Source: Candidatus Scalindua sp.
GTDB taxonomy: Bacteria; Planctomycetota; Brocadiia; Brocadiales; Scalinduaceae
Direction: 5' to 3'
Assembly (NCBI GenBank): GCA_031316235.1
Contig: JALDRA010000001.1
Span: forward strand, 3,360,001-3,392,000
DNA length: 32,000 nucleotides
Part shown: positions 3,491 through 30,090 of the stretch, piece by piece
How the letters are laid out: the number at the start of each line of letters is the position of its first letter
How positions within the stretch are numbered: the first letter of the stretch is position 1
Position numbers and translations under genes: made by a program
Notes under the pieces: model-generated
Database searches by the model: none
The model's input: only the letters and a program-made list of their open reading frames with translations
What the model was told of the DNA's origin: nothing

Positions 3491-3639
3491 TATACTAAAA
3501 CCGATTTGATTTTCGGTTTTACCGGAAACCAGATCCTGGTGAAGGTATCCCCTGACAAAATGCGCCGAGGACTTTACTCGCTCAATTTTATCTCGGATTT
3601 TATCGGATTTTATCCGAAAACCTTTATGAGATGAGTATA
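3491..3639 (-). repeat. TATACT element, long form (copy 1, with a 10-nt internal duplication tatcggattt)
   Basis: The reverse complement aligns end to end with 7268-7406 and 11702-11840. The plus strand starts tatactaaaaccgatttgattttcgg and ends tatgagatgagtata. Confidence 0.9.
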
Positions 3640-3771
3640 TCCGGGCAGTTTTGAGTCATCCACAGGATTCACGTTTAAACACTGTTGTTGAGATGGAATC
3701 TTTCCTTTCTGTCTCATTGCTTATCTCCTCGGTAAAGGATTCAATGTTCGCTCAGTTGTTCAGAATTTCAG

Positions 3772-4410
3772 ATGGGGAAAAAAGAAGATGCATTCACCTT
3801 GTTAGAGCTTATTATTGCGCTGACTATCGGGGCAGCATTAATTGTGCTGGTTTCCGTTTCCGTCAGGATGGGGTTTTTTCAGATGGGGCGCGGCAGTAAA
3901 GCGCTTGAGGAGAGTTTGAGAGAAAAGAATGCGGTGCATTTTTTTTGCCAGCAGGTATCATCCCTGCGGAGAGAGAGCGTCGGGGATGAGGTGATTTTCA
4001 ATGGTGACTCGAAGAATATTCTCTTTGTAACACCAATGTCTCTGGAGAAAAACTACAGTACGGGGTTAATGACGGCAACATTTTTTCTGGAAAAAGGGGA
4101 AACAGGAGTAAAACTTAACTACAAGGAGAAAAGGCACATTCCCGTTGAAGATATTGAAGCGTACAAAGGTGAAAATAGAACGATTTTTGATCAAAGCGAA
4201 AGCGTAACAATCTTTGAAGGTTTTGATGAAATTGTTTTCCAGTTTCTCGATAGTGAGGATAGTGAAGACGAAGGTGCAGCTTTGGGTCAAACTGATGCTG
4301 TTTGGAAAGATTCATGGTTAGAAAAAGAGCTCCCAAAGGCCATAAAATTAATAATGACAAAAAATGGCATAAAAAGAGAAGTTGTTGCCCCAATAATGGT
4401 TATGTACTGA
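3772..4410 (+). CDS. Prepilin-type pseudopilin (GspJ-like size)
   Basis: 212 aa. N-terminal MGKKEDA|FTLLELIIALTIGAALIVLV has Glu at +5. The -1 residue is Ala rather than Gly. Its position upstream of the GspK-like gene fits GspJ. Confidence 0.6.
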   Translation: MGKKEDAFTLLELIIALTIGAALIVLVSVSVRMGFFQMGRGSKALEESLREKNAVHFFCQQVSSLRRESVGDEVIFNGDSKNILFVTPMSLEKNYSTGLMTATFFLEKGETGVKLNYKEKRHIPVEDIEAYKGENRTIFDQSESVTIFEGFDEIVFQFLDSEDSEDEGAALGQTDAVWKDSWLEKELPKAIKLIMTKNGIKREVVAPIMVMY

Positions 4411-5486
4411 TATTTGTCTTATGGTCGTTAACCATACTGAGTTCGGTGGCATTGAGTTTTTCAAAGGATACAAAGATTTCTATCCTCCTGAGCACTGTAC
4501 ATGCCCAGAGAGTGGTTGATAGCTATGCAATGCGAGGTGCCGTACTCTATGCACTGAATAAAATGTCAGGGAATAGCGAAACACTGACTGAAGCATCACC
4601 CCAGAATGAAATCGGATCAAAAGAGGTAGGAGAGGGGGATGCGATTACTGCGGCTGAACCCCCGAGAGATGATGGAAGAAAACCGCCAGGGGTAACAGAG
4701 AGAACAGCCGGATATTCTAAATCGAAAGAGGGTGACGAAAATAAGGAAACCGTTGTGTGGGTCCCCGGCAGGGAGCCGTACTCAGTAAAAGTCGGTAACA
4801 TTGATTGCGCTGTTTACCTCCATGACGAAAATGGAAAGCTGAACATAAACGGGATAACTAATGAAAATAGAGATATGTTTATCAGGTTTCTTGGTAAGAA
4901 AGGAATAGAGGTCCTTGATGCTGATGTGGTTGTGGATTCTATGTTGGATTGGCTGGATCCTGATGACCTCACTCATATTAATGGGGCGGAAGATAAATAT
5001 TATGAATCTTTACCTGAACCGTATAAAGCAAAAGATGCCTCCTTTTCTTCAATAGAAGAGTTGATGCTGGTTCGTGATGTAACAGCAGAAATCTTTGAGA
5101 GCATAAGAGATGAAATAACTGTATACGGCGAAAAACAGATCAAAATTAATGTAAATTTTACCTCAAAGGAGATCCTCAGTTCTCTACCGGGTCTCACAGA
5201 TGGTATAGCAGAAGATTTGATCTCCTATATTGAGGAAAGTGGTCCAATCAAAGAAGTTGATGATTTGAGAGAGGTATTTTGGAGTCTTGGCATAATAGGT
5301 GACAGTTTTGAAAAAATAAGGACGTATTTAACTGTTGAGCAATCAAGCTTTGTTACTATTCGTGCGGTAGTCAGGGGGTCAGACCAGTTGTCAACTCGAG
5401 GGGATAGTTCCGATGACTATGGATATCGGCTGATTGCGGGTAAGGGAGATATGGGGTATGGAATTGTTGCAGCCTTTCCTGAATAA
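4314..5486 (+). CDS. gspK: Type II secretion system protein K-like (GspK family minor pseudopilin)
   Basis: Hydrophobic N-terminal helix YVLIFVLWSLTILSSVALSF without Glu+5, a GKLNINGI motif, and a helix-hairpin-helix-like SIEELMLVRDVTAEIFESI. The start is uncertain (TTG 4302 or ATG 4314). Either start overlaps the upstream gene by about 100 nt. Confidence 0.65.
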   Translation: MVRKRAPKGHKINNDKKWHKKRSCCPNNGYVLIFVLWSLTILSSVALSFSKDTKISILLSTVHAQRVVDSYAMRGAVLYALNKMSGNSETLTEASPQNEIGSKEVGEGDAITAAEPPRDDGRKPPGVTERTAGYSKSKEGDENKETVVWVPGREPYSVKVGNIDCAVYLHDENGKLNINGITNENRDMFIRFLGKKGIEVLDADVVVDSMLDWLDPDDLTHINGAEDKYYESLPEPYKAKDASFSSIEELMLVRDVTAEIFESIRDEITVYGEKQIKINVNFTSKEILSSLPGLTDGIAEDLISYIEESGPIKEVDDLREVFWSLGIIGDSFEKIRTYLTVEQSSFVTIRAVVRGSDQLSTRGDSSDDYGYRLIAGKGDMGYGIVAAFPE

Positions 5487-5495
5487 ATTTGTGAA

Positions 5496-5608
5496 TATAC
5501 TCATTTCATAATGGTTTTCGGACAAAATCCGAGAAAAAACGGAGCGAGCATACCAGCAACCAAGATTTGGTTTTCAGAAAAACCGAAAACCAAATCGGTT
5601 TTAGTATA
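5496..5608 (+). repeat. TATACT element, short form (copy 2a, lacks the GC-rich hairpin module)
   Basis: tatactcatttcataatggttttcggacaaaatccgag...aaaaccgaaaaccaaatcggttttagtata. Confidence 0.9.
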
Positions 5609-5746
5609 TGCTCATCTTATACTGGATTTCGGATAAAATCCGGGAAAGAACAGTGCGAATAAAGTCCTCGGCGTTTTTTGTCCGGGGATACCAGCAACCG
5701 GGCTTTGGTTGTGAGCAAAATCTAACACCAGATCGGTTTTGGTATA
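5605..5746 (+). repeat. TATACT element, long form, diverged (copy 2b), head-to-tail with copy 2a and sharing TATA
   Basis: tatatgctcatcttatactggatttcggataaaatccggg...aaagtcctcggcgttttttgtccggggatacc...gatcggttttggtata. Confidence 0.8.
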
Positions 5747-5860
5747 CCTTTGCTGCTACGGAGATGTGAGCGCAAAATTTCCATTTGATTACGGAACCTA
5801 TTATGATATCATTACCACTGAAAGAGTCCGTTTCGTAAGCAGTTAGTTTTGCAGGTGTCT

Positions 5861-6559
5861 ATGGAAATAACCCGTAACATAAACTATGTAGCTATATTTC
5901 TGTTCCTGATTTTCGGAGTGGCTTATGCGGGTGATGAGGAAGTTGAGACCACGGCTGCATCGGGTGGGAACCAGATTGTAATATCTCCGGGTAATATCTT
6001 AATGGATCTCGCTGAATACGCATCAGTAAATGCTTACGTGATCGATAGTGATGGAAATCCTATTGAAGGTAAAACAATACAGGTTGTTCCGCAAGACAAC
6101 AACGTATCAATAAAGAACAGCGGGTTTGTTACGAACGAATTCGGGCATATCAGCTTTTTTGTCTTCGGAAAACAGGAAGGAGATGCTGTGGTCATTGTGA
6201 CTGACGGGACTGCTTCTTCCCAGCTAAATGTTACAACAAGAAACCTCATACACTACGTACTTCCCTATTTTTACGGAAATATGCAGCTGAGCATCATCAA
6301 TCCATCTTCAGAAGAAAATTTTGCAAAGGTTCAGTTTTATGAAAACAGCAGCGAAGAGGGTGAAAGCAGAGAAATACTCCCTTTTACCGTAAGGCTTTCT
6401 GGTAAGGAGATGAAGAAGATTTCTCTTGCTAAGGAATTAGGAGTTGAGCTGGGAGATGGTTGGGCAGAGATTCTTGCTACAGATGTTGTCATCGGCGGAG
6501 TTTGGACGAAGAAAGGCTATCTTCCCTTTCGGCCTGTTATACAAGGAGGCTTGCAGTAA
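5861..6559 (+). CDS. Secreted protein with bacterial Ig-like (Big/invasin-like) domain, function unknown
   Basis: Signal-peptide-like N-terminus (NYVAIFLFLIFGVAYAG). The segment AYVIDSDGNPIEGKTIQVVPQDN...GDAVVIVTDG resembles Big_1-type domains. ATG 5861 is preferred over TTG 5849. Confidence 0.55.
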   Translation: MEITRNINYVAIFLFLIFGVAYAGDEEVETTAASGGNQIVISPGNILMDLAEYASVNAYVIDSDGNPIEGKTIQVVPQDNNVSIKNSGFVTNEFGHISFFVFGKQEGDAVVIVTDGTASSQLNVTTRNLIHYVLPYFYGNMQLSIINPSSEENFAKVQFYENSSEEGESREILPFTVRLSGKEMKKISLAKELGVELGDGWAEILATDVVIGGVWTKKGYLPFRPVIQGGLQ

Positions 6560-6715
6560 TGTTTTTTTACAGCTACGTTTCATAGCGCGTCAGAGCCACC
6601 CCGCCTGTGTCGTTTCCTCTCCTCTTCACCCGTTGAATCCGCAGTGCTGTTCAGGCTAGACATATGGCTCAGCACGATCAGATCGACCCGGCCTGAACTG
6701 AAACTGAGTGCGATG

Positions 6716-6737
6716 AAATAACCAGGTTATTTTTTTT
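6716..6737 (+). terminator. Weak Rho-independent terminator-like hairpin
   Basis: The aaataac-cag-gttattt stem (7 bp, AT-rich) is followed by a T-run. It lies 157 nt after the stop at 6559. Confidence 0.3.
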
Positions 6738-6810
6738 CGAGACCCACAAGAGTCAGCAGCCATCAGATGATAAGGGCAAAATTTCAAAGAAACGGAATAT
6801 TGTGGTAACG

Positions 6811-7260
6811 ATGACAAGACGTAATAGTGAGGATTCATTCACACTTGTCGAGACTTTAGTTGTATTGGCTATTGTTGCGGTTATTGGTGTTGCGACAGTG
6901 CCGAAGATCACGGCAGCAATAGATACCGTGAGGTTTCGAGGGGCGGTATCTGAACTGATAACCTTCTTGAGGAAGACTCATCTTGAAGCAATACTGCAAA
7001 GAAAAAATCTTGAAATAGTCATCGATTTTGAAAATAATTCCCTGAAAATAGATGATGAGAGGCAGTTTGTCCTGCCAGCGGGAATGGCGTTGGAACCAAA
7101 AGAGCAGTATACTTCAGAGACGATGAAATATAGATTTTTTTATAATGGGAGGGGTACTGGTCCTGAAATAAACATACGGGGGGAAAATGAAAGAAAAGCT
7201 ACTGTGTATGTCGATTTATTGTCGGGATTGGCAGGGTATGATTTATCAGGTTATGATTGA
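6811..7260 (+). CDS. Prepilin-type pseudopilin, GspH/FimT-like
   Basis: N-terminal MTRRNSEDS|FTLVETLVVLAIVAVIGVATVPK with Glu at +5. The following segment (FRGAVSELITFLRKTHLEAILQRKNLEIVIDF) resembles the GspH/FimT domain. ATG 6811 is preferred over GTG 6802. Confidence 0.65.
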   Translation: MTRRNSEDSFTLVETLVVLAIVAVIGVATVPKITAAIDTVRFRGAVSELITFLRKTHLEAILQRKNLEIVIDFENNSLKIDDERQFVLPAGMALEPKEQYTSETMKYRFFYNGRGTGPEINIRGENERKATVYVDLLSGLAGYDLSGYD

Positions 7261-7267
7261 TAATGAA

Positions 7268-7406
7268 TATACTCATCTCATACTGGATTTCGGATAAAAT
7301 TCGAGATAAAATTGAGCGAGTAAAGTCCTCGGCTCTTTTTGTCCGGGGATACCTTCACCAGGATCTGGTTTCCGGTAAAACCGAAAACCAAATCGGTTTT
7401 AGTATA
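7268..7406 (+). repeat. TATACT element, long form (copy 3, used as the reference copy)
   Basis: tatactcatctcatactggatttcggataaaattcgagataaaattgagcgagtaaagtcctcggctctttttgtccggggataccttcaccaggatctggtttccggtaaaaccgaaaaccaaatcggttttagtata. Confidence 0.92.
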
Positions 7407-7473
7407 GATGAAAATATGGTTGGCTGCCTGGTGGTTTTTCCCGTTAGGCCTCCTCACGGCAATAGTGTCTGCA

Positions 7474-8577
7474 TCAACGTTCCCCGCCCCGTGTGATAAA
7501 GGGTGCATGTACAATCTCCGCAGCGTACTCTTTCCCTCTTATCTTTACGGTAACCTGACTTTTTTGTTCTGCAAAATCTTTGAGAACATAACCAAGGCCA
7601 ATGCCTATATTCAAGGTAGGACTGAAAGTGCCGCTGGTAACTTTACCGATAACGTTGTAATGATGAAGTATCTCATTATCTGTCCTTGGTATACCTTTAT
7701 CATGCATCTTAAATGCTACAAGTTTCTTCTTTATGCCACCTTCCCGCTGCCTCAGCAGTGAATCTTTTCCGATGAAATCTCTCTTGTTGAATTTGACAGT
7801 CCAACCAATATTTGCCTCAAATGGGGAGGTTGTGTCGTCAATATCATTGCCATAAAGCGGCAGGCCTGCCTCCAGTCGTAATGTGTCTCTTGCTCCGAGG
7901 CCTGCAGGCTTTAACCCCATCGGATTGCCTTTTTCAAGTAACCGATTCCAGACCTGCTCACAATGCTGACGATTAACGAAGATTTCAAAACCGTCCTCAC
8001 CGGTATAGCCTGTTCTCGATATTGTTAGCTCTATTTTTTTGTCAGTTATTTCAGCGAATTGGAAACGTGAAAGGGTCGTGCAGATTTCTCCATATGTCTC
8101 ACGGAGAATCCTCTCAGAATTTGGTCCCTGTACAGCAAGCAGGGCAACCTGGTCGCTGAGATTCTCGATACTGGTATCCTTTGTTTTCCACTTGCATATC
8201 CAATCGTTGTCTTTTTTTGTATTAACACAGTTTGCGACAACCATATATTTTTCAGGATTGAATTTCAACACGATAACATCATCGATGATACCTCCCTCTT
8301 TATTGCAAACAGGCGTGTAGAGGGCGTGGTTATTTTGGATGTCCCTTACATTATTGGTGATAATCTGCTGGATTAATTCCGTAGCCCCTTTCCCCGCAAC
8401 CACTATTTCACCCATATGTGAAATATCAAAAAGTCCGGCACTGTTTCTTGTGTTTCGGTGTTCTCCGATAATACTCTCATACTGAACCGGCATGAAAAAA
8501 TTGCAGAAGCTTGTCATGTGGGCGCCAAGTTCTACATGTACATCATATAAGGGTGTTTTTTTTGTATATTCAATCAA
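7474..8577 (-). CDS. gcvT: Glycine cleavage system aminomethyltransferase (T protein)
   Basis: 367 aa. KTPLYDVHVELGAHMTSFCNFFMPVQY...LFDISHMGEI and the C-terminal barrel are typical of GcvT. The start is TTG, with GAGGAG 5 nt upstream. Confidence 0.92.
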   Translation of the reverse strand: MIEYTKKTPLYDVHVELGAHMTSFCNFFMPVQYESIIGEHRNTRNSAGLFDISHMGEIVVAGKGATELIQQIITNNVRDIQNNHALYTPVCNKEGGIIDDVIVLKFNPEKYMVVANCVNTKKDNDWICKWKTKDTSIENLSDQVALLAVQGPNSERILRETYGEICTTLSRFQFAEITDKKIELTISRTGYTGEDGFEIFVNRQHCEQVWNRLLEKGNPMGLKPAGLGARDTLRLEAGLPLYGNDIDDTTSPFEANIGWTVKFNKRDFIGKDSLLRQREGGIKKKLVAFKMHDKGIPRTDNEILHHYNVIGKVTSGTFSPTLNIGIGLGYVLKDFAEQKSQVTVKIRGKEYAAEIVHAPFITRGGER

Positions 8578-8582
8578 ATGAG

Positions 8583-8588
8583 CTCCTC
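8583..8588 (-). promoter_or_regulatory. Shine-Dalgarno (GAGGAG) for gcvT
   Basis: Plus-strand ctcctc lies 5 nt from the TTG start at 8577, which supports the non-ATG start. Confidence 0.6.
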
Positions 8589-8617
8589 ATAGGGTGGAAT
8601 TGGTATTCATCCTGTGG

Positions 8618-8920
8618 TTACAATAGTTCTGGTTTCGTGTAGCCTTTTCTCTCAAGAAAATGAACTATTCTTTTGTTTACTCTTTGTGTTTTTGAGTAGT
8701 CGGGAAGCCAGAATTTAGAGGTATCGATGCCACTCACTGTTCTTTTATCTGTATTGATAATGAAGTTTACTTCTTCTGGTTTCTCCCCCTGGCTTTTGAC
8801 TAATATCACTCCATCATTCGGGTCAAAATCGATATTAACCCTCAAGTTCTCTTCGTGGAAGATCTTTCCGATGTTTCTTACGAGATTGATTAAGTCTTCT
8901 AATGTGTTGTCTTTTTGCAT
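8618..8920 (-). CDS. Hypothetical protein (about 100 aa), no recognisable domain
   Basis: Clean ORF 40 nt upstream of gcvT on the same strand. ATG at 8920 (TTG at 8923 is also in frame). Confidence 0.45.
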   Translation of the reverse strand: MQKDNTLEDLINLVRNIGKIFHEENLRVNIDFDPNDGVILVKSQGEKPEEVNFIINTDKRTVSGIDTSKFWLPDYSKTQRVNKRIVHFLERKGYTKPELL

Positions 8921-9019
8921 CAAAAATTTGCAAGTTGTTTTTTTATAATAGGGTTAATGTGCTTAAATCCCGATGATTAAACATTGCTGATTACGAATAG
9001 CACTTGCCAGGGGAAGGTG

Positions 9020-9850
9020 TCATGATACCTCTCCTGCCTGCAGGGCAACCCGAATCCTTTTCGCCTTTTCAATAAGGGGCAGTAATAAATCTAAGGGTAA
9101 CATTGAGGCTGAATCAGAAAGGGCATTTTCCGGGTTTTCATGTGTTTCTAAAAATATACCGTCACAGCCAGCAGCGATTGCGGCCATAGTTAAGGGTAAA
9201 ATCATCTCTTTATGGCCGCCTGACACTGAACCCTGACCTCCCGGTAGCTGTATACTGTGAGTTGCATCGTAAATAACCGGAAATCCCATTTCCTTCATGA
9301 TAATGATTGAACGCATATCAGTTACGAGATTATTATAACCAAAAGTTGTTCCCCTTTCAGTAAATAATATTTTGTCATTACCGGTTGAAAGGATCTTTTC
9401 TGCAATATTTTTAACATCCCATGGGGCCAAAAACTGTCCTTTCTTAATGTTTATGGGTTTTTCTGTCTCCGCAGCACGAAGGAGCAGGTCGGTTTGTCGA
9501 CAGAGAAATGCAGGTATCTGGAGAATATCCAGGGCCTCTTTTGCAATGGCAACCTCATCACAGCAATGGATGTCGGAGATTACGGGTAAACCGAAACGTT
9601 TCTTAATCTTAGAAAGAATTTTTATCCCCTTTTCGATGCCGGGGCCTCGGAACGATTTGATCGATGTGCGGTTTGCCTTGTTATATGAAGCCTTGAATAT
9701 CACTGGAATTTTTGCCTTATCGGCTATCTTCATTATTTTTTCTGCTATCCGGCAACAGCTCTCTTCTGTCTCAATGACACAAGGCCCGGCAATTAACACA
9801 AGAGGATTTTCTTCTCCAATAATGAAATTGTTGATCTTGATTTCCTTCAT
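9020..9850 (-). CDS. kdsA: 3-deoxy-8-phosphooctulonate (KDO8P) synthase
   Basis: 276 aa. LIAGPCVIE...FKASYNKANRTS...FRGPG...ISDIH...QIPAFLCRQTDLL are KdsA signature segments. Confidence 0.92.
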   Translation of the reverse strand: MKEIKINNFIIGEENPLVLIAGPCVIETEESCCRIAEKIMKIADKAKIPVIFKASYNKANRTSIKSFRGPGIEKGIKILSKIKKRFGLPVISDIHCCDEVAIAKEALDILQIPAFLCRQTDLLLRAAETEKPINIKKGQFLAPWDVKNIAEKILSTGNDKILFTERGTTFGYNNLVTDMRSIIIMKEMGFPVIYDATHSIQLPGGQGSVSGGHKEMILPLTMAAIAAGCDGIFLETHENPENALSDSASMLPLDLLLPLIEKAKRIRVALQAGEVS

Positions 9851-10261
9851 GAGAGGGCAATGGCTCTTTTAAAACGAAAGGTCAATACATTCACAGCAAA
9901 GTTTTTTTAGCCTGGGTTTTGATAGAAAAACGACAAAAAGTTCTTAAGAGCTGAAGTATTTCTATATCAAAGACATAGGTATAAGTCAATCCTTTAATTT
10001 CCTGGCAAATTTTCATTTGCTTTTTTACGGTTATTTGATGTATAATCCCGACACTACATAGTTTACACCAGCAGATAGAGATTTTTGAAATTATTTCTCC
10101 GCAAAACTTTATCTTCTTTATGATATGAATTAAACCAATTTCAGCTTTTATGAGCATGTGTTTTGCTTTGTAAAAGCTTTTGGTCTTATCGGTGAGAGTA
10201 TTGGCTTTTTATGAAAAGGCATCTTTTTTTGTAACATAATTATATTAAAGGGGTTAAGTGG

Positions 10262-11593
10262 ATGGTGCAGAGCGAAATAAACTTTGACACAGTTTTACAT
10301 ACCGAGACATTGGATAGAGAGGATATCAGTAACTTTAAGAAAAAAGTATACAGTTCTGTAGATGAGTTCGTTAGTCTGGAAAAGAGGATAAAGAAATTAG
10401 AAGAAACCATAAATGAGGCAGGGGATCCTTCGGGTGTGAAGGGAGAAATTCTGGTCTTGGGAATATGCTACTGGATATTGGGCAAGCAGAATCAGGCCAT
10501 AAAGTATCTTTCTGAGTCGAAATCACGTAAAATTGCATCCTATTACCTGGGAAAGTGTCATCAAGAGCTTGGAAACTATGAAAAGGCACTTGAGCTTTTT
10601 GAGAGGTCAAAGCGGTCAGATAGTGAAGAGTTTGCCATCCAGATCGACATAGCGGAGACAAAACGGCTGTCAGGTGATCTGCAGAATGCGTTAAAAATGA
10701 TCCAGGCATTATCTAAAAAATATGACAACGATGCAAACCTGCATTACCAGTGGGGGCATTGTCTTGACGATGAGGGTGAATACCAAGATGCTTTAGCTCA
10801 CTACAATCGTGCCCTGGATATTATGTCTGATCATCCGAATACTTTATTTCGACTTGCGTATAATTTTGATCTTAATGGTGAGGACGATAAAGCGATCGAA
10901 TATTATGAAAAATGTGTAGGGCAGGTTCCCACCTATTCAAATGCGATATTGAATCTTGGTATCCTGTATGAAGACCGGGAAGAGTATGCAAAGGCGATTT
11001 CCTGTTTTGAAAAGGTTGTAAAAATGAATCCCGTCCACCAGAAAGCGAGGCTGTTTCTTAGAGATGCCCAGTTTGGTCTGGATATGTGCATAGATGAAGA
11101 CAGGGCGAAAAAGGAAGACAAGGAGACCGAGGTTCTGAGCATACCAATATCTGATTTTGAGCTTTCTGTCAGGAGTAAGAATTGTTTGGAGAGGATGAAT
11201 ATTAATACGTTGGCAGACTTGACAAAGATAACCGAGGCAGACCTGCTATCGTATAAGAATTTCGGTGAAACTTCTTTGAATGAGATTAAACATGTTCTCA
11301 ATCAAAAAGGGTTGCGACTTGGGCAGACTCTTGAAGAGAACAAAACAACTGAGGAGCTTGCCGGAATCGATGTGGGGAGAGATAATGGCGGTATGTCCAA
11401 TCTTGTGTCAGAGCTGCCGCTTTCGACACGCTGCAAGAGTGCCCTGAAAAAGATAAATATTGAGAAAATAGGCGAGGTGGTGGAGAAGAAGGAATCGGAA
11501 CTGTTGGGTCTTGGTCTTAAGCAGGCCTATATTGATGAATTGAAGGCCAGTCTCGGGGAGCAGGGTTTTGGGCTCAGTAGTGAAGAAGAGTGA
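10262..11593 (+). CDS. TPR-repeat protein with two C-terminal RNA polymerase alpha-subunit CTD-like (HhH) modules
   Basis: The central part has TPR-like repeats (YYLGKCHQELGNYEKALELFERS..., AILNLGILYEDREEYAKAISCFEKVVKMNP). The C-terminal ISDFELSVRSKNCLERMNINTLADLTKITEADLLSYKNFGETSLNEIKHVL closely follows the RpoA alphaCTD pattern. A second, weaker module is LPLSTRCKSALKKINIEKIGEVV... Confidence 0.8.
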   Translation: MVQSEINFDTVLHTETLDREDISNFKKKVYSSVDEFVSLEKRIKKLEETINEAGDPSGVKGEILVLGICYWILGKQNQAIKYLSESKSRKIASYYLGKCHQELGNYEKALELFERSKRSDSEEFAIQIDIAETKRLSGDLQNALKMIQALSKKYDNDANLHYQWGHCLDDEGEYQDALAHYNRALDIMSDHPNTLFRLAYNFDLNGEDDKAIEYYEKCVGQVPTYSNAILNLGILYEDREEYAKAISCFEKVVKMNPVHQKARLFLRDAQFGLDMCIDEDRAKKEDKETEVLSIPISDFELSVRSKNCLERMNINTLADLTKITEADLLSYKNFGETSLNEIKHVLNQKGLRLGQTLEENKTTEELAGIDVGRDNGGMSNLVSELPLSTRCKSALKKINIEKIGEVVEKKESELLGLGLKQAYIDELKASLGEQGFGLSSEEE

Positions 11594-11611
11594 TGTGGGA
11601 ATTGTGAATGA

Positions 11612-11701: not shown

Positions 11702-11840
11702 TATACTCATCTCATACCGGATTTCTGATAAAATCCGAGATAAATTTGAGCGAGTAAAGTCCCCGGCGCTTTTTGTCCGGGGATACCTTCACCAGGATTT
11801 GGTTTCCGGTAAAATCGAAAATCAAATCGGTTTTAGTATA
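11702..11840 (+). repeat. TATACT element, long form (copy 4)
   Basis: Near-identical to 7268-7406 along its whole length. The hairpin module reads gtccccggcgctttttgtccgggga. Confidence 0.92.
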
Positions 11841-12623: not shown

Positions 12624-13643
12624 GTGGCAGATGAAAATGTTCTTTCTTGTGGTATGATTCCTGAAGATAGCAGTTTTGATGTCGCTTTGCGTCCAAAGAG
12701 ATTTTGTGACTTTATTGGTCAGGAGTCAGTCAGGAAGAACCTGCGCATATATCTTGAGGCATCAAAGAAGAGAGGAGATGTATTAGACCATATTTTGTTT
12801 TCTGGTCCTCAGGGGTTGGGGAAGACGACACTATCTCAAATCGTTGCCAATGAGATGGGTGTGGAGATCAGGGCTACCTCTGGACCTGTTCTTTTTAAGC
12901 CTGGGGACCTGGCGGGTATTCTCACAAATTTAAAATATGGTGATATGCTTTTTATTGACGAAATTCACAGGTTGAATACCACAATAGAGGAATATCTTTA
13001 TTCCGCGATGGAGGATTACTCTATCGATATATTGATAGATCAGGGACCGAATGCCCGGTCAGTGAAGATACAGCTCCCGCGTTTTACGCTTATTGGTTCA
13101 ACGACACGCGAAGGATTGTTGACGCCATCATTTAGGGCCAGGTTTGGCGTATTGGAGAGGCTGGAATTTTATCCGTGGGCTGAATTGCAGGAAATTGCAG
13201 TAAAGTCTGCACAGAAACTCGGCATGGAAATAGATGAAAAAAGTGCTGAATTGGTGGCAAAAAGTTCCAGGGGTACGCCTCGGATTGTGAACAGGTTCAT
13301 AAGGCGGATCAGGGATGTTGCTCAGGTAGAAGGCCTCAATAAAATCACAGAAGATATCGTAGGAAAAGGTCTGGAAATGCTGGGGGTAGATAAAAACGGT
13401 CTCTGTGGAATGGATCGGAAGATTTTGCGCACAACTATACTTCATAATGGAGGGCCGATTGGCTTGAAGACTCTTGCGGTTTCCGTTAACGAGCAGGAAG
13501 ATACAATTGAAGAGGTGTATGAGCCTTTTTTGATACAGAGAGGGTATATCAGTAAAACACCTCGGGGCAGGATAGCCACACAGTTGACCTATGACTATTT
13601 TGAGAATAGCTGCCTTCTGGAAAAACAGGACTCTTTTTTGTGA
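12624..13643 (+). CDS. ruvB: Holliday junction branch migration DNA helicase RuvB
   Basis: 339 aa. LRPKRFCDFIGQE..., Walker A GPQGLGKTTL, Walker B LFIDEIHRL, and sensor SRGTPRIVNRFIRRIRD. The start is GTG. Confidence 0.95.
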   Translation: MADENVLSCGMIPEDSSFDVALRPKRFCDFIGQESVRKNLRIYLEASKKRGDVLDHILFSGPQGLGKTTLSQIVANEMGVEIRATSGPVLFKPGDLAGILTNLKYGDMLFIDEIHRLNTTIEEYLYSAMEDYSIDILIDQGPNARSVKIQLPRFTLIGSTTREGLLTPSFRARFGVLERLEFYPWAELQEIAVKSAQKLGMEIDEKSAELVAKSSRGTPRIVNRFIRRIRDVAQVEGLNKITEDIVGKGLEMLGVDKNGLCGMDRKILRTTILHNGGPIGLKTLAVSVNEQEDTIEEVYEPFLIQRGYISKTPRGRIATQLTYDYFENSCLLEKQDSFL

Positions 13644-20683: not shown

Positions 20684-20707
20684 AACATTAACTGCGAAAG
20701 GGGTAAA

Positions 20708-22942: not shown

Positions 22943-23986
22943 TCAGTAATCGTCTTCTCTGCTCTCTGGTTTCGTAGTAAGCTGTCCGCATGCAGCGAGG
23001 ATGTCGGCTCCTTTAGACCGTCGATAGAGGGCATGAGCTCCAAGGTCCAGCAGCGTCTGGTGAAATTTCATGACCTTCTCCTCGCTGGGACGTTCAAGTG
23101 AGGATCCAGGAAAGGGATTATAGGGAATGATGTTGATCTTACACGGTATATACCGAGTGAGCCGAAACAACTCCCTGGCATCTTGCAGAGAGTCTGTGAT
23201 CCCTTTGATAATAATATAACTGAACGTGACCTTGTCACCTGAGATCTGAGCGTGCTTTCTGCAGGCATCCATTAATTCATTAATAGGGCAGTGCTTGTTA
23301 ACTGGCATTAATCGGCTGCGTACCTTATTATCCACTCCGTTGAGACTTACGGTCAGCCGGACCCGCGCTTCGGTGACTCGGGGAATGAACCTGGCGATCC
23401 CCGCCGTGGAAAGAGTGATTTTTTTTCTGGGAAAGTTGATTCCCAGTTCACTAGTAAAGATCTCGATAGCCCTGAAAACTCCGTCAGGGTTATCCAAGGG
23501 TTCTCCCATACCCATGAAGACGATATTCGTGATCCGTTCATTTGCCTGCTGGAGCTTCGATAGCAGCAGATATTGTGCGACGATTTCACCGGCTGTCAAA
23601 CGTCTTTTCATGCGGGTTCTGCCCGTAAAACAAAAGAGACAGCCGAAATTGCATCCTACCTCTGAAGAGACGCACAGGGTTAGTCGACCATCTGATGGTA
23701 TTAAGACGGATTCAACAGCCTGACCGTCACCAAGGTAGATCAGGAATTTTTGAGTCCCGTCCTGGCTCCGGCAGTGCTTCTCGATTCTCGGCAGGGGAAA
23801 GGAAAGCAGCTGGGGAAGTTCGGCTCGGAATATTTTCGAAATATTTGTCATCAAACCGAAATCATAGACACCCTTCTGATAGACCCATTTGTAGAGCTGG
23901 CCGGCTCGATAGACCTCCTTTCCTTTGCCATGGAGAATCGACTGTAATTCGCTCAGTGTCTGGTCAAAAAAGCTTCTCAGCACCAT
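22943..23986 (-). CDS. rlmN: 23S rRNA (adenine2503-C2)/tRNA methyltransferase RlmN (radical SAM)
   Basis: 347 aa. YRAGQLYKWVY, the radical-SAM motif CVSSEVGCNFGCLFCFTG, GMGEPLDN, and the C-terminal ILAACGQL. Confidence 0.92.
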   Translation of the reverse strand: MVLRSFFDQTLSELQSILHGKGKEVYRAGQLYKWVYQKGVYDFGLMTNISKIFRAELPQLLSFPLPRIEKHCRSQDGTQKFLIYLGDGQAVESVLIPSDGRLTLCVSSEVGCNFGCLFCFTGRTRMKRRLTAGEIVAQYLLLSKLQQANERITNIVFMGMGEPLDNPDGVFRAIEIFTSELGINFPRKKITLSTAGIARFIPRVTEARVRLTVSLNGVDNKVRSRLMPVNKHCPINELMDACRKHAQISGDKVTFSYIIIKGITDSLQDARELFRLTRYIPCKINIIPYNPFPGSSLERPSEEKVMKFHQTLLDLGAHALYRRSKGADILAACGQLTTKPESREDDY

Positions 23987-24001
23987 TACATCACATCTCC
24001 T

Positions 24002-25630
24002 TTATAATGAAAATAGTTCACGCAACAGTGTTTCTGGGTAGATGCAGAACGGGTAGTCTCTCATGGAAACAATGGAATTATAGCGTAACTTCTTTTCCAG
24101 GGAAAGTAATTCTTTTTCCTTCTCCCTGACCAGGGTGGAGATCTTTTCCTTCATCAACAGGTTAAGCTCTTTCAGGCGGCTGAAGACACGGCGTTTTTCG
24201 TCCTGATTCCGTATTTGTGTCATAATCAGCATTTCCTTCTCCCTGATCATGGAAAGCATTGATGAATCACGCATGATTTCACTTGTCGTGTAGTTTTCTG
24301 GGTGGTAATTCATATCTTTAATGGTATCTCTTACTCCTTCCACATCTTTCAGAGTAACACGATATTGCTCAAAGGGTAGATGGAGGGTAGCAGAAATGGT
24401 CGCAAAAGAGGGAGGTTCAACCCCATAAAACCTCTTTATTATCTCGTCCGTAATCAGATCATATTTTGCTCCCCCGATTCCATGTACAAAGAGATCAGAT
24501 ATAAACATCCGGGCATACAGAGTATTGATAATTGCCCGGGGGCGTATGTTTAAGCCTGCATCTTTGATACGTACCAGTTTCTTGAGGTTCTCTGAGAGAT
24601 TCCCGCTGACGGTAAAATCCAGTTCCGCTATAATCTCTTTTCTGTACATCAGCCCCATGTGGCTCTCTTTTCCTGATGAGGCAAAAAGCCTTTCTCTCGG
24701 CCGGTTCTTCCCCCAAATCCAGAAAGGGAGTTCTATGATATCTCCCTGTCTCTCTAAATTTGGTAAGGGATTTGCTTTAGATCGGATTTTCTTCTCTTTT
24801 CGGTACCAGTCAAGAGTGGTATTATAGATATCAGCAAAGGTTTTCATATTCTGTGCTATATGAAGGAAAAATTCGTAAAATGGTTCAGTTTCTGCTATGT
24901 GAGAGACGGGAACTTCTAGATTGTCGATGGTAAATCTTCGCATGTACACATGTCTTGAGAAGGTAAGCAGGTCACGAAAATTTTCAGTTTCGTTATGAAG
25001 TTTCATGATGATATCCATAAATTCACTGAATGTGTGTTTCATTTCAGCATTATGTGTGTAGAGCGTCACGAGCCTTCTCAATTCTTTCAATTGAACGAGG
25101 TCTGTGTACCTGATCTCTTCAAAGGGTAAATCATCCGGCTTTGTCATGAACGGAATTTTTTCGAGTGAGGAACGTAATCCATTGAGATGAGGAATGCTGA
25201 AAAAGGGATCTCGGCAGATCTCGCTGTCCACTATGAGATTCAGCCCGATGCCGTTACCCTGTTTTGCCAGATTGTTTACAAGACCGTACTTAATCAGGAT
25301 ACCAGGGTGTGTAAGGATAGGAGCATGTCCTGTCTGGATGATGGTGGATTCGGGGGTATAGGCAGCATTGCGGTAAAAGAAATCCCTATCACCCGCTATT
25401 TTCAGATTTGTACAGAGAGACCACATCCTTTCGGTGTATTCTCTGGCTTTTTTGAATGTTTCTCGACGCACCCATTCACGAAATTGAGAATAGGGTCTGC
25501 CGTTAATGTTAAAACAGTAAGATTGAAATCCTCTCTTATTTAAATAGATTAATCCGGCAATCTCTTCATAAGCAGGTTTCATGAATATCTCTTTGTTGTT
25601 TTTCGGGATCGTGAATGTTTCAAAATTCAC
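24002..25630 (-). CDS. Conserved hypothetical protein, distant BshC-like architecture (putative ligase fold plus C-terminal coiled coil)
   Basis: 542-aa ORF ending 15 nt upstream of rlmN. The segment IIQTGHAPILTHPGILIKYGLVNNLAKQG...NLIVDSE parallels the BshC GGQQxGLxxGPLYxxxK...LAK...EDHD region by eye. The C-terminal part is rich in heptad-like K/E/L residues. The start is GTG 25630 or ATG 25582. The functional call has low confidence. Confidence 0.5.
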   Translation of the reverse strand: MNFETFTIPKNNKEIFMKPAYEEIAGLIYLNKRGFQSYCFNINGRPYSQFREWVRRETFKKAREYTERMWSLCTNLKIAGDRDFFYRNAAYTPESTIIQTGHAPILTHPGILIKYGLVNNLAKQGNGIGLNLIVDSEICRDPFFSIPHLNGLRSSLEKIPFMTKPDDLPFEEIRYTDLVQLKELRRLVTLYTHNAEMKHTFSEFMDIIMKLHNETENFRDLLTFSRHVYMRRFTIDNLEVPVSHIAETEPFYEFFLHIAQNMKTFADIYNTTLDWYRKEKKIRSKANPLPNLERQGDIIELPFWIWGKNRPRERLFASSGKESHMGLMYRKEIIAELDFTVSGNLSENLKKLVRIKDAGLNIRPRAIINTLYARMFISDLFVHGIGGAKYDLITDEIIKRFYGVEPPSFATISATLHLPFEQYRVTLKDVEGVRDTIKDMNYHPENYTTSEIMRDSSMLSMIREKEMLIMTQIRNQDEKRRVFSRLKELNLLMKEKISTLVREKEKELLSLEKKLRYNSIVSMRDYPFCIYPETLLRELFSL

Positions 25631-25816
25631 AGAACTTGGCTCCTGACGTTGTTAACTTCCTGTTTCTGCTTTGCAACAATAAAAACAGTAACAGATTCAC
25701 TATGCGGCAAAATGTATACTTAATAGTCAAAATTAAAAGATTGTTTCACCGGTATTTGTTTAGAACAATAACACAAACTGGACCCATTGCAAAATGATTT
25801 CCAGAATTTCAGGGTG

Positions 25817-25971
25817 TATAAGTTTGCACAGAATTTGATATTCCGATTGAACGAAACCAGAGGCCTGGTAATACACAGGTGAGGACTTTCTCCGGACAAA
25901 AAAACGCCGAGGACTTTACTTGCTCAATTTTATCTCGGATTTTATCCGAAAACCAGTATGAGATGGGTATA
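25817..25971 (-). repeat. TATACT element, diverged long-form copy (copy 5); left arm and hairpin well conserved, right arm degenerate
   Basis: The plus strand reads ...ccggacaaaaaaacgccgaggactttacttgctcaattttatctcggattttatccgaaaaccagtatgagatgggtata. The distal part keeps taccagg..ctggtttcg..aatcgg and a terminal tata. The low-coordinate boundary is approximate. Confidence 0.6.
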
Positions 25972-26282
25972 CAATATCTTTCCTTTGCTTTCAGCCTCAG
26001 CGTTTGTCTGCGTATATTCGTGCCTGATGTCTTTTGCCTTGCAAAGCAAGACCGCTGATTTATAATGAAAGTAAAGAGGTAAAAGGTGAAGACTATTTCG
26101 TGCCCGTTGTAACCAACTTTAAAAAGAGAGCCCTGTCTGTCAATACGTGAACTGTTTCACCTGTATTTATTGATATCTGCGTCTGTTTTTCTCGCAGTAT
26201 CTCTTTATGAAAAAAAGGTATGCAGTCAAGGGGGACTCGATAATCACAGAGCAGGTTGACTGTACCCTGGTACTACATTCTC

Positions 26283-27122
26283 ATGGAAAATAAATCTGAA
26301 AATAACAAAAAGCAGAGTAGTTTATCCCTGGAAAGGATAGCAGACGATTTATTTATAATTTTTGAAAATGAGATTTTATTCCAAAGGTACTATCCACCGA
26401 AAGACAAGCTGGAAAAGAGAGCAGAGGAATATTTCGAGCAGATATCCAAAGAAAAAGAGATGGAAAAAGGTGAATGTAAAGACAGCGTAAGTAAACCATT
26501 ACAAATGAGTATATTCAAGGATATTTTGCCAGCATATTCTGATTATAGGCAAATTAAAGATAGTTACTTGGAAAAAATTGAAAATAGAAGTCTTTTGAAA
26601 TATATATGCCTTACCGTGTTAGGTTTGGAGGCTTTAGAGGTATTATTTTTTAAAACTGGGGTACTTTCTCCTCCAATCTTGATTGTATCTGTTTTTTTTG
26701 AAATTTTATTAGGTGCGGCAATTTATAAAATTAAAAACTTAAAGGATCAGGATAAAATAATTGCTGCTAAGGGATATTTTTTTGCGACTGTTCATAATAC
26801 CCAAAAAAGTTTGAATACAGATATTGATTACCGTGAATATCAGACTAAAAAAAACAGTGATCAAATTATCTCAGAAATTAATGTATTATTGAAAAAATAT
26901 GATAATAAAGATCAATTTTGGGACGATTTTATTAAAATTCGAAAATACGATCCAACTACCCAAAAAGCATTTCAAAAATTGAATACTCCAAAATTTAAGG
27001 ACTTTGTACTGCTGCATTTTGATGATAAATATAACTCTCAGATCAGGAAAATAAGATACGATGAACTATTCAAACAAGCCGAGTTGTATTTTAAAAACAA
27101 GCAATACATTGATAAATCATAA
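26283..27122 (+). CDS. Hypothetical Lys/Asn-rich protein with two central predicted TM helices (orphan, AT-rich gene)
   Basis: Long ORF in a visibly AT-rich stretch. The hydrophobic segments are YICLTVLGLEALEVLFF and PPILIVSVFFEILLGAAIY. No family was recognised. ATG 26283 is preferred over TTG 26256. Confidence 0.55.
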   Translation: MENKSENNKKQSSLSLERIADDLFIIFENEILFQRYYPPKDKLEKRAEEYFEQISKEKEMEKGECKDSVSKPLQMSIFKDILPAYSDYRQIKDSYLEKIENRSLLKYICLTVLGLEALEVLFFKTGVLSPPILIVSVFFEILLGAAIYKIKNLKDQDKIIAAKGYFFATVHNTQKSLNTDIDYREYQTKKNSDQIISEINVLLKKYDNKDQFWDDFIKIRKYDPTTQKAFQKLNTPKFKDFVLLHFDDKYNSQIRKIRYDELFKQAELYFKNKQYIDKS

Positions 27123-27171
27123 TCTCATCTTTAGTTCTAGAATTTTCTAAAAACCAAAGCGTGGTTAATGG

Positions 27172-27283
27172 TATACTCATCTCATAATGGTTTTCGGATA
27201 AAATCCGAGATAAAATTGAGCGAGTATACCTTCACCAAGATTTGGTTTCCGGTAAAACCGAAAACCAAATCGGTTTTAGTATA
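27172..27283 (+). repeat. TATACT element, short form (copy 6a)
   Basis: tatactcatctcataatggttttcggataaaatccgagataaaattgagcgagtataccttcaccaagatttggtttccggtaaaaccgaaaaccaaatcggttttagtata. Confidence 0.92.
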
Positions 27284-27285
27284 TC

Positions 27286-27365
27286 CACGGACAAAAAACG
27301 CCGAGGACATTACTCGATCCGTTTTTTCTCGGATTTTGTCCGGAAAAAGTTATAAGATGAGTATG
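27286..27365 (-). repeat. TATACT element, partial copy (6b: left arm plus GC hairpin module only), inverted relative to 6a
   Basis: The reverse complement reads catactcatcttataactttttccggacaaaatccgagaaaaaacggatcgagtaatgtcctcggcgttttttgtccgt. Confidence 0.8.
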
Positions 27366-27486
27366 AAAGAGTAAAATAAAAAATAAGAGTTTTTTTCTTG
27401 CGCTCTTACTGCCCGGTCAGGCCGTTCGGGCAGGAGGGGCTTTACGGCGAACTGCTTCTTTTCAGATACGTCCGGGTCAGGTATGT

Positions 27487-29028
27487 ATGGAAAATAAAAA
27501 ATATAGACTGGAAGAGATACAGAACTGTATCACAACCCTTGAGTGGTTGGTTGAAAACAGTGAACAACTTGCCTGTTTAAGCAGACAGGAAAAAAAGAAG
27601 CTGTTTACCGCAGCGGGGAAAATTGCAAGGCCTTCGGTCGAAGAGAGGAAAAAACGTCTTAAAGATAAAAAGATTGCGAAAAGCCGGGGAACAAAAAAAG
27701 CTGACCGAGTTGCGCGGGGGAATACCGGCATCCGTGATGCCCGGCTGAAAGATGTATTCAGCGCTCCGAAAGAACTTCCGATGGACCGGATTGAATCGGG
27801 GCTTAAGCCGGAAGTGCTGAGTTCCGGACGCAATTGTTATGTGTGTAAAGCAGAGTTTACTACGCTCCATCATTTTTATGATTCAATGTGCAAGTCTTGT
27901 GGCGATCTGAATTATAGAAAACGATTCCAGACAGCATCGCTTCACGGCAAGGTCGCATTGATTACCGGCTCTCGTCTTAAGATCGGTTACCAGGCGACAT
28001 TGATGCTGCTGCGTGCCGGTGCAACGGTAATTGCCACCACCCGTTTCCCGGTTGATTCGGCAGAGCGATATGCAAAAGAGGAAGATTTTGCTCATTGGAG
28101 AGACCGTCTGCATATTCATGGCCTTGATTTACGCCATACCCCAAGTGTGGAAATTTTTGCCGGCTACATAGAGCAAAGCTACGACCGACTTGATATACTG
28201 ATCAATAATGCGGCTCAGACAGTTCGACGTCCTCCGGGATTTTATGCGCATTTAATTGGAAATGAATCAAAACCATTCCACAATTTTCCAGAGGATGTCC
28301 AGGTTCTTCTGAGGAACCATGAAGCCTGCAAAAACCAGCTGACAGGGCTTTGCCGGAACGGGCTGCTTGAGCAAGGCTCCCTTCTCCCTGTTGCATGGCA
28401 TGGACAAGGCCCTGGAATCGGATTGCGTGCTTCTGCAGAACTTTCGCAGATTCCCTATAATTTCGACAACTCAATAGTCGCTGCAGAGGTATTTCCAAAA
28501 GATGAACTTGATGTGGATCTTCAGCAGGTTGATTTACGGAAAACTAATAGCTGGCGTTTAAAGCTTGGTGATATCGAAACCCCTGAAATGCTGGAAGTAC
28601 AACTGGTGAATGCAGTTGCTCCATTTGTATTGTGCAATCGTCTGGCTAACCTGATGAAACGAGATAATACAGGGCAGAAACACATTGTGAACGTAACGGC
28701 GGTTGAAGGCAAGTTTTACCGGTTTAAAAAGTCAGATCGTCACCCCCATACGAATATGGCGAAGGCAGCCTTAAATATGCTTACCCACACTTCGGCAGGC
28801 GATTTCAAAAAATATGGTATTTTTATGAATGCGGTTGATACCGGCTGGGTGACCGATGAAGACCCGATAGAACTTTCCCGATTCAAACAACACGTGCATG
28901 ATTTTCAGCCTCCATTGGATATTGTGGATGGAGCGGCAAGAGTTTGCGACCCGTTTTTTGATGGCATTCTTACCGGGAAACATTGGGTTGGGAAATTTCT
29001 AAAGGATTATTTCCCGATCGACTGGTAG
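27487..29028 (+). CDS. SDR-family oxidoreductase with an N-terminal basic region and a CxxC...CxxC zinc-ribbon-like motif
   Basis: 513 aa. Rossmann motif [39 protein letters not shown], and AKAALNMLT. The N-terminus has a K/R-rich tract and [30 protein letters not shown]. Confidence 0.8.
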
Positions 29029-29036
29029 CTTTCATG

Positions 29037-29065
29037 TATACTAAAACCATTATGAGATGAGTATA
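29037..29065 (-). repeat. TATACT element, 29-bp termini-only mini copy
   Basis: The reverse complement is tatactcatctcataatggttttagtata. This is the left terminus joined to the right terminus across the shared GGTTTT. Confidence 0.8.
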
Positions 29066-29101
29066 TACCCATTCCAGAAATCATTCTGCAGCGGTATACA
29101 G

Positions 29102-29935
29102 CTAATTAACCTGGATAATTTCTGCCTTTTTCGGTTTTTTGAATTGGAATACCTCCGGTTTCAGGATTTGATTAAGAGAAGGATCCTTGAAGGTGATGCT
29201 TAATGTCGTTTCTGATTCAGGCCAGTTGATTTCGACCTCTTTCGGTAATGCATAGTCTTCAACGAGGACGTAATCATTGAAGGTGGCCTGCGCCTTGACG
29301 AGGCTATCAGTCTGAAACAGTATAAGTTCGGTTATTGTACTATCGATTCTGTCGATTTTTAATCGTCCGTAAGGAATATAGCCCTCACCAGTTTTATTAA
29401 ATACATGGATAAGCCAGAAGGTCGGCCAAGTCTCCATAAAGGCCGATCTCCCCTCGAAAAGTTTTCCATGATCCAGGAGCACGGCAATGTCATCGGGAAA
29501 GAGGTATGCCGTATCGTGTGCGGTCCGTTGTAAATGAGATCTTCCTGTGTAAACGGTCTTTTGCTTCGGGAGATAAAGCCAGAAGTTCTGGCCATCTGAA
29601 AGCATATTAAAGACGGTGGTGGCAAGCTTAAAGCCGATGACTCTGATTTTTTCTGGTTTTTGTAATACAAAGACACCCTTACAGGAGAATGGCCCATTGG
29701 TCTCCGGTGTTGTGAGTGTTATCTCGATGTTTGACTTGAGGCTGGTTATCTTTCTCTCTTCAGATACTATATGCTCTTTTAGCTGGAGGAAGGAGAGTTT
29801 CTGGATCCTGCCTGTATCAATCCGGGAGTGAAGATCGGTCTGTGTATCCAGGGGCAGATGAGACTTCTGTGTCGCACAGCCGGTAAAAAGGAGAGAAGCT
29901 GCCAGAAGTAATAGTATATAAGATTTACGGCTCAT
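29102..29935 (-). CDS. Lipoprotein with LolA/LolB-like (DUF4292-like) features
   Basis: Signal sequence plus lipobox-like MSRKSYILLLLAASLLFTGC. The beta-rich body has the pattern ...GVFVLQKPEKIRVIGFK...DGQNFWLYLPKQKTVYTG, typical of LolA-fold lipoproteins. ATG 29935 is preferred over 29971. Confidence 0.5.
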   Translation of the reverse strand: MSRKSYILLLLAASLLFTGCATQKSHLPLDTQTDLHSRIDTGRIQKLSFLQLKEHIVSEERKITSLKSNIEITLTTPETNGPFSCKGVFVLQKPEKIRVIGFKLATTVFNMLSDGQNFWLYLPKQKTVYTGRSHLQRTAHDTAYLFPDDIAVLLDHGKLFEGRSAFMETWPTFWLIHVFNKTGEGYIPYGRLKIDRIDSTITELILFQTDSLVKAQATFNDYVLVEDYALPKEVEINWPESETTLSITFKDPSLNQILKPEVFQFKKPKKAEIIQVN

Positions 29936-29976
29936 TTTTTTACCCTTGGTTACTATTTCCATCTGATTCATTTTCG

Positions 29977-30090
29977 CTACTCATCTCATAATAGTTGTCG
30001 GATAAAATCCGAGAGAAAAAAATGAGCAAGGATACCATTAACCAGGCTCTGGTTTTAAGAAAAATATAAAACCAGATCGGTTTTAGTATA
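29977..30090 (+). repeat. TATACT element, short form, diverged (copy 8); the right end overlaps the ndk stop
   Basis: gctactcatctcataatagttgtcggataaaatccgagagaaaaaaatgagcaaggatacc...aaaaccagatcggttttagtata. Confidence 0.8.

Follow-up and report, generated by a model that had tools for sequence, protein, structure and literature searches.

What kind of element is the short repeat that begins with TATACT and ends with AGTATA in a stretch of 32,000 nucleotides from the genome of a Candidatus Scalindua species (contig JALDRA010000001.1, positions 3,360,001 to 3,392,000, hereafter the window), and what moves it? Our analysis indicates that this TATACT family is very probably a miniature inverted-repeat transposable element (MITE) of the IS630/Tc1-mariner type, because it duplicates a TA at its target, has ends like those of IS630-family insertion sequences (ISs), lies in random orientation and has left mini-derivatives that consist of terminal inverted repeats only. 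That the family is repeated and has terminal repeats, that it duplicates TA and shows no strand bias, that its insertions differ between lineages and that its ends are like those of an IS can all be read directly. A search of a literature library for MITEs in Scalindua or anammox bacteria found no relevant paper; the family is previously undescribed and adds a new member to a familiar class of mobile elements.

The window holds ten copies or fragments, nine of which are profile hidden Markov model (HMM) matches and one of which is a 29-nt derivative made of ends only. The HMM was built from a nine-copy alignment with a clear consensus, and nhmmer E-values ran from 1e-24 to 1e-45. A repeat search recovered the family on both strands, as direct families D1-D4 and inverted pairs I1-I25. 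Between them, the two methods place every copy listed in a first-pass annotation of the window exactly where it was reported or within a few bases, and its "possible remnant" at 27143-27176 is real: an older minus-strand copy was cut in two when 27172-27283 inserted, and this is its right-hand piece. The features are as follows (M1 is an optional internal module; CM, covariance model).

3491-3639, minus strand: full copy, 149 nt including the flanking TA/TA, with one M1 and a 10-nt internal duplication (nhmmer E=1.6e-42); it occupies a TA of a copy of a second, unrelated MITE family of about 150 nt.
3393-3687, plus strand, outer limits approximate: the host copy of that second family, split by 3491-3639 (blastn and alignment with 7 intact copies).
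5496-5608, plus strand: short-form copy, 113 nt, without the middle module (nhmmer E=1.9e-27; CM 126.8 bits).
5607-5746, plus strand: copy of 140 nt with one M1 module (nhmmer E=3.3e-40).
7268-7406, plus strand: copy of 139 nt with one M1, between a convergent pseudopilin gene and gcvT (nhmmer E=5e-45).
11702-11840, plus strand: copy of 139 nt with one M1, upstream of ruvA (nhmmer E=5.4e-44).
About 25817-25971, minus strand: old, degenerate copy (nhmmer E=7.9e-34, model positions 3-135).
27134-27171, minus strand: older copy, right-hand remnant with a degenerate end (inverted repeat I20 with 30029-30072).
27172-27283, plus strand: young short-form copy, 112 nt, inside a TA of the older family copy (CM 138 bits; nhmmer E=2.8e-30).
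27284-27365, minus strand: the left arm, with M1, of the older copy that 27172-27283 broke apart (nhmmer E=5.8e-24).
29037-29065, minus strand: end-only 29-nt derivative, TATACTCATCTCATAATGGTTTT-AGTATA (direct family D4).
29976-30090, plus strand: diverged short-form copy (nhmmer E=7.5e-24).

The copies at 5496-5608 and 5607-5746 adjoin each other, with a single TA (5607-5608) common to both. The degenerate copy at 25817-25971 retains an intact left arm, an M1 and a decayed second M1, and its right end is eroded. In the derivative at 29037-29065 two GGTTTT repeats are joined, as they would be after an internal deletion.

The TA duplication, which the first-pass annotation could only call compatible with the ends of its copies, is now demonstrated by empty sites. 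Three independent kinds of filled and empty site bear on it. The first is an orthologous site between ruvB and queH, which is filled in the Scalindua genome RBC_AMX3 (block L104, 7305-7415; GAT-TA[TACT...AGTA]TA-CATG) and empty in the window (near 13640; GAT-TA-CATG). The second is provided by nesting in another repeat: three TATACT copies, including window copy 3491-3639, have entered one and the same internal TA of that second MITE family, where intact copies of that family read CCTTG-TA-CCTGGG and filled copies read CCTTG-TA[TACT...]TA-CC. The third is self-nesting, as the copy at 27172-27283 occupies the TA of GGA-TA-CC in an older member of its own family; read on the minus strand the junction is GGA-TA[TACT...AGTA]TA-CCATTAACC, and the copy at 29976-30090 has GGATACCATTAACC at the corresponding place. 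The junctions were read by eye from the flanks, where MAFFT global alignments are unreliable.

Insertions also differ between lineages. An 8-kb block is syntenic between the window and L104 and holds three presence/absence differences. Window copies 7268-7406 and 11702-11840 are absent from the orthologous intergenic regions of L104, and both of these sites are too diverged for exact placement of the TA. Copies occur in all gene contexts, and where the neighboring genes are co-directional 26 copies have the same orientation and 22 the opposite one, so that orientation relative to genes is unbiased. TA duplication, lineage-specific insertion, unbiased orientation and end-only derivatives are together what is expected of mobile DNA whose movement depends on its ends.

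All window copies sit between called genes, and none contains an open reading frame (ORF) of at least 80 aa. The first-pass annotation described every copy as intergenic, and this holds except for 29976-30090. The reading frame of ndk, the minus-strand ORF at 30083-30544 that encodes NDK, nucleoside diphosphate kinase, finishes inside the right end of that copy, from which it takes its final sense codon (TAC) and its TAA stop (30088-30083). The location of these two codons inside the element indicates that the insertion remodelled the C-terminus of the enzyme.

The element itself reads TACTCATC...GGTTTTAGTA; the TAs outside it are the target duplications. Its boundaries are imperfect 26-nt inverted repeats, TA|TACTCATCTCATAATGGTTTTCGG ... 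CCGAAAACCAAATCGGTTTTAGTA|TA, which match each other at 18/26 positions and are the best conserved parts of the element across 38 and 141 aligned copies. This bears out the interrupted terminal inverted repeat, TATACT-N10-TGGTTTTCGG, that was described from the window alone.

A candidate partner for these ends came from related genomes and metagenome contigs. A search with the generic end motif TATACT-N10-TGGTTTTCGG found a similar end about 100 nt from the tips of four contigs of the Scalindua genome SCAELEC01, with differing flanks in all four. The 34-aa C-terminal fragment encoded at these contig tips, padded with X, gave no match in a protein search. Scanning metagenome-contig DNA with the IS end located a complete element of 1121 bp in block L122. 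Its ORF of 347 aa matches DDE_3 (E=1.9e-30) together with HTH_33, HTH_29 and HTH_23, which is the architecture of the IS630 family. The transposases of this IS are 343-347 aa long, and homologues of the L122 ORF share 77-87% identity with it. One of them (P0014, 343 aa) is represented by five identical IS copies in the Scalinduaceae genome CBDCUS01, bounded by TATAC...AGTATA, flanked by TA...TA and located in different flanks. Another homologue, P0047, is annotated as "IS630 family transposase [Candidatus Scalindua sp.]" and suggests that the IS is also present in the window's own genome. The statement of the first-pass annotation that no transposase is in sight is therefore right for the window and too narrow for Scalindua genomes, which do carry an IS630-type IS.

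The right inverted repeat of the IS matches the left end of the MITE at 21-22/26 positions and its right end at 18-19/26. The two ends of the IS itself match each other at only 15-19/26, and the chance of at least 19/26 matches is about 7e-7. IS630-family transposases insert almost exclusively at TA and duplicate it (PMC2170065). From the matching ends and the TA duplication we infer that this transposase, or a close relative of it, moves the MITE in trans. Several other leads ended without a mobilizer. The fetched loci contained no transposase-bearing element bounded by MITE ends, when end pairs up to several kb apart were considered and ORFs of at least 100 aa were clustered. Long "elements" between MITE ends turned up in two cases only, in each of which an IS110-family element interrupts a MITE copy; that element is a guest and not the mobilizer. 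An end-like motif at L038 2717 has no IS behind it. Separately, intact genes for IS110-family and ISL3-family transposases (L127 669-1685 and 4623-5864, CBDCUS01) are found no more than 3 kb from one IS630 copy and make up a small IS cluster with it.

In the mechanism that we propose, copies of the MITE would be mobilized in trans by the DDE transposase of the 1.12-kb IS630-family IS found in the same genomes, and would be cut and pasted into TA dinucleotides. A bipartite motif at the ends (TATACTCAT + TGGTTTT[C/A]GG) is the likely site of transposase binding and cleavage. The interior is a hairpin scaffold, in which master copies probably gained optional hairpin modules at fixed points; such module-bearing masters would have founded subfamilies and then been amplified. 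Effects on the host are probably by-products, such as one supplied stop codon, altered intergenic regions and landing sites for other elements.

Several observations weigh against this account or limit it. The window contains neither a transposase gene nor an autonomous copy, and the C-terminus of P0047 is frameshifted. Both MITE ends are nearer to the right repeat of the IS than to its left repeat. Beyond the 26-nt repeat the MITE and the IS are no longer similar, and the MITE therefore did not arise by simple internal deletion of the IS that was found. The putative link to the transposase is drawn from end similarity and TA duplication. Short-form copies share a mean identity of 93%, and given this value activity need not be current; the copies may still be mobile, and this particular transposase is their probable mover. 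Finally, base pairing in the interior above shuffled expectation could mean some selection beyond transposition.

That last point concerns the internal anatomy, which is more elaborate than the two sequence subfamilies first noticed. The subfamilies exist, and a modular architecture, missed in the first-pass annotation, exists in addition. Copies with paired ends are non-coding and span 57-221 nt, most of them being about 112, 139 or 166 nt long. The size classes, of about 112, 139, 166 and 195 nt, reflect which optional hairpin modules are present at set positions in a shared scaffold. Module M1 (AAAGTCCTCGGCG.TTTTTGTCCGGGG) occurs 0, 1 or 2 times in tandem after GAGCGAGT; M2 lies ahead of the right palindrome, M3 (which also has an extended version) in the apical loop of the right palindrome, and M4 in the loop of the left hairpin. 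At the other extreme are end-only derivatives of 29-57 nt, with 57-nt examples in L005 and L061. M1 is restricted to the TATACT family (78 occurrences inside it and 0 outside), and GC-rich hairpins like M2, M3 and M4 occur elsewhere in the genomes too. Hairpins like M3 or its extension stand outside TATACT elements at L011 2966-2995, L042 4029-4058, L092 1118-1147, L044 6729-6756, L052 7091-7118 and L118 425-452; some of these lie within what appears to be a further repeat. The free-standing GC-rich hairpins may be a REP-like (repetitive extragenic palindromic) micro-element that entered MITE master copies.

Folded as RNA, single copies form two or three hairpin domains with energies well below those of shuffled controls (z = -4.0 to -7.4); folded as DNA the effect is weaker (z = -2.5). 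The subterminal hairpins proposed for each arm in the first-pass annotation exist, and the one described for the right arm competes with a longer palindrome, GATTTGGTTTnCGGT/ACCGAAAACCAAATC. In a covariance-model alignment of 141 copies, 92.5% of helix cells pair and 19 pairs have changed on both sides, which exceeds shuffled and slid controls; these statistics are weak, as the alignment was made to fit the model and the copies are closely related. RNAalifold found almost no covariation among 38 short copies, because these are 93% identical. The covariance-model alignment lends modest support to the view that the palindromes are maintained.

Could the structure itself be the reason for the repeat? 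A functional structured RNA (a small RNA, a cis-regulatory leader or a family of terminators) would account for the folding z-scores, for the paired and doubly changed positions in the 141 copies, and for the placement of optional modules in loops or at junctions. It would not explain why copies nest in other repeats, why they differ in presence and absence between genomes, or why they are oriented without regard to the genes around them. A scan for promoters and terminators found no terminator-like signal and no above-background promoter-like signal in the copies, and the pair statistics are weak for the reasons just given. An Rfam scan of the whole window gave no match at gathering thresholds, and no copy in window 3400-7500 matched at E<=1; the family did not turn out to be a known Rfam family, an outcome that the first-pass annotation had named as one way in which its reading could fail. 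We consider an RNA function very unlikely, and as the primary explanation it fails; in a weaker version, MITE copies could have been exapted for an RNA-level role such as stabilization or processing of mRNA. Preserved base pairing reflecting an RNA-level role of those copies that are transcribed is a possibility. The preference of the first-pass annotation for a non-autonomous mobile element over a leader or riboswitch is supported.

Among the classes of mobile element that it offered, the MITE fits, and the other two fail on the TA duplication, the symmetric IS630-related ends and the lack of strand bias. IS200/IS605-type palindrome-associated elements are moved as single-stranded DNA by a Y1 transposase (TnpA) through subterminal hairpins, and each arm of the TATACT element does bear a subterminal hairpin. 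Such elements, however, make no target duplication, lack terminal inverted repeats, insert beside a fixed site of 4-5 nt and have an orientation tied to replication. The TATACT copies duplicate TA, have symmetric terminal repeats that match those of an IS630-family IS and are oriented 26:22, and no Y1 or TnpB gene was seen beside any copy; we give this class hardly any credence. A similarly slight chance remains for a REP/BIME-like element (BIME, bacterial interspersed mosaic element) spread by a REP-associated tyrosine transposase (RAYT). The copies are numerous, intergenic and palindromic as such elements are, and the M2, M3 and M4 hairpins are partly free-standing, so that a REP-like micro-element may exist as a passenger. 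REPs are imperfect palindromes of 20-40 nt that are associated with RAYTs and make no target duplication, whereas the units here are 112-195 nt long, carry 26-nt IS630-related terminal repeats and duplicate TA; a Pfam scan of the window genes, which covered the window only, found no RAYT gene. An artefact of assembly or binning has a near-zero probability. Short-read contigs of the window's strain do break inside the copy at 11702-11840 (L002-L004 start at window 11792), but several independent assemblies, one of them built from long reads and with contigs of 2.3 and 2.9 Mb, place copies in unique flanks, and a short-read contig of 100% identity spans the copy at 29976-30090.

How far the MITE has spread was estimated from the window and at least 117 genome-contig blocks, about 0.96 Mb in all, fetched with a 20-nt core pattern from one genome per species. 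Beyond the window this sample drew on seven metagenome-assembled genomes (MAGs): Scalindua SCAELEC01, RBC_AMX3 and OFTM1, the long-read Scalinduaceae MAG CBDCUS01, an Anammoxibacter MAG and two further MAGs. A wider genome search had been suggested with the first reading of the window, and it found many further copies in this and related genomes: the HMM gave 188 matches, 123 of them full length, in the window and these seven other anammox MAGs. Nearly all blocks listed for the core pattern come from anammox MAGs; two from unrelated bacteria have no HMM match and are chance matches to the pattern.

Density is about 310 copies per Mb in the window and roughly 70 per Mb in SCAELEC01 and RBC_AMX3, a figure that counts only copies beyond the one that triggered each 8-kb block. 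CBDCUS01 has fewer, and no copy occurs in 35 kb of independently fetched CBDCUS01 sequence. By rough inference a genome of 4-5 Mb may hold a few hundred copies, or about 1% of its length. The window is a local hot spot, and the suggestion that the family might be a major genome component was overstated. A near-consensus 113-nt copy (L082 4040-4152; 130.8 bits) was seen in the Candidatus Anammoxibacter MAG OFTM134, which is assigned to a different family of Brocadiales. This copy could reflect horizontal spread or a mis-binned Scalindua contig; the Scalindua MAG OFTM1, which shares the OFTM naming prefix with OFTM134, likewise carries the element.

The TATACT family is not the only mobile DNA of these genomes, and some of the other elements are tied to it. 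The second MITE-like family, about 150 nt long, has the ends TAGTGTTTGAACGAAAAC.../...GTTTTCGTTCACGCACTA, is mostly flanked by TA and is unrelated to the TATACT family; it gave 53 blastn matches in the 0.96 Mb (for example L005 314-481, L050 4427-4582 and L075 1047-1204). A third MITE family, about 182 nt long with ends TATACYCATYRCAAATTGGTTTTCGG, occurs at L014 3193-3373, L042 2838-3019, L096 6093-6274 and L115 981-1162, with 18 matches in the 0.96 Mb and none in the window. Its ends match the IS630-type end motif at 19-20/26 positions, and on this ground a single transposase probably moves two or more MITE families.

A different relationship is seen with an IS110-family element of about 1.72 kb in RBC_AMX3 (L068 4442-6278 and L101 3150-5009, both on the minus strand). 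The two inserts interrupt separate MITE copies, which differ in their flanks, and have an identical position in M1, CGGCGCC|TTTTGTCC, as well as the same relative orientation. The inserts are 99.5% identical, and their ORFs match DEDD_Tnp_IS110 and Transposase_20, the gene being split or frameshifted. This suggests that the IS110-family element targets M1 site-specifically. The IS110 family includes RNA-guided "bridge" recombinases. It is tempting to speculate, as an idea we regard as unlikely on present evidence, that the TATACT family is a layered platform for other mobile DNA, in which the scaffold repeatedly takes up small GC-rich palindromic micro-elements in loops and at junctions and M1 acts as an IS110 insertion site. 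If this were true, the MITE would seed hundreds of landing pads across the genome.

The gene content of the window is that of a diderm bacterium, with housekeeping genes and genes for type II secretion or pseudopilins. One of its proteins (10262-11593, plus strand; 443 aa) combines tetratricopeptide (TPR) repeats with two stretches that match the RNA polymerase alpha-subunit C-terminal domain (PF03118, E=1.9e-30). The combination is an unusual fusion, and it is kept in Scalindua RBC_AMX3 (L104 4056-5387).

The TATACT family reveals no new mechanism. Most genomes of anammox bacteria, which are uncultured or difficult to grow, have been recovered from metagenomes. Hundreds of MITE copies, together with at least two other MITE families, explain where short-read Scalindua assemblies fragment, and the TATACT insertions are strain-level markers. 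They point to an IS630-type transposition system that has been active across Scalindua lineages, and the pairing of its transposase with its ends could be tried as a genetic tool in Planctomycetota.

Among known systems the closest analogue is the pneumococcal RUP (Streptococcus pneumoniae). This MITE is non-coding and about 107 nt long, has terminal repeats like those of an IS630-family IS in its own genome, inserts at TA and also enters other mobile elements (PMC2229807). RUP was assigned to IS630-Spn1 from the similarity of the ends and the TA targets (PMC2229807), and the argument for mobilization in trans is the same as the one made here. The two families have no sequence relationship, and Scalindua belongs to the Planctomycetota, order Brocadiales. 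Unlike RUP, the Scalindua family is modular with several size classes, and at least one further MITE family (the one of about 182 nt) shares its end motif. Among autonomous relatives, ISY100 inserts into TA and duplicates it in vitro (PMC2170065). ISY100, IS630 and Tc1-mariner elements resemble the proposed partner IS, which has an N-terminal HTH region and DDE_3 in 1.12 kb with TA on both sides; the TATACT element, by contrast, has no ORF and is about ten times shorter than such autonomous elements.

The Correia or NEMIS elements of Neisseria occur in forms of about 107 and 155 nt, distinguished by an internal block, with terminal repeats of 24-26 nt, TA termini and transcripts that fold into long stem-loops (PMC2229807). 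Size classes that arise through an internal block, and TA termini, are common to Correia and the Scalindua family. Correia has no established transposase partner, whereas a candidate partner was found for the Scalindua family, and Correia is known for its IHF site, promoters and RNase III processing, whereas the Scalindua copies have no above-background promoter signal. The BOX elements of Streptococcus pneumoniae have conserved end modules and a variable number of copies of an internal module, and are not known to have an assigned transposase. The number of M1 modules in Scalindua copies (0, 1 or 2) recalls this modularity, by description only. Unlike BOX, the Scalindua family has a clear TA duplication and IS630-like ends.

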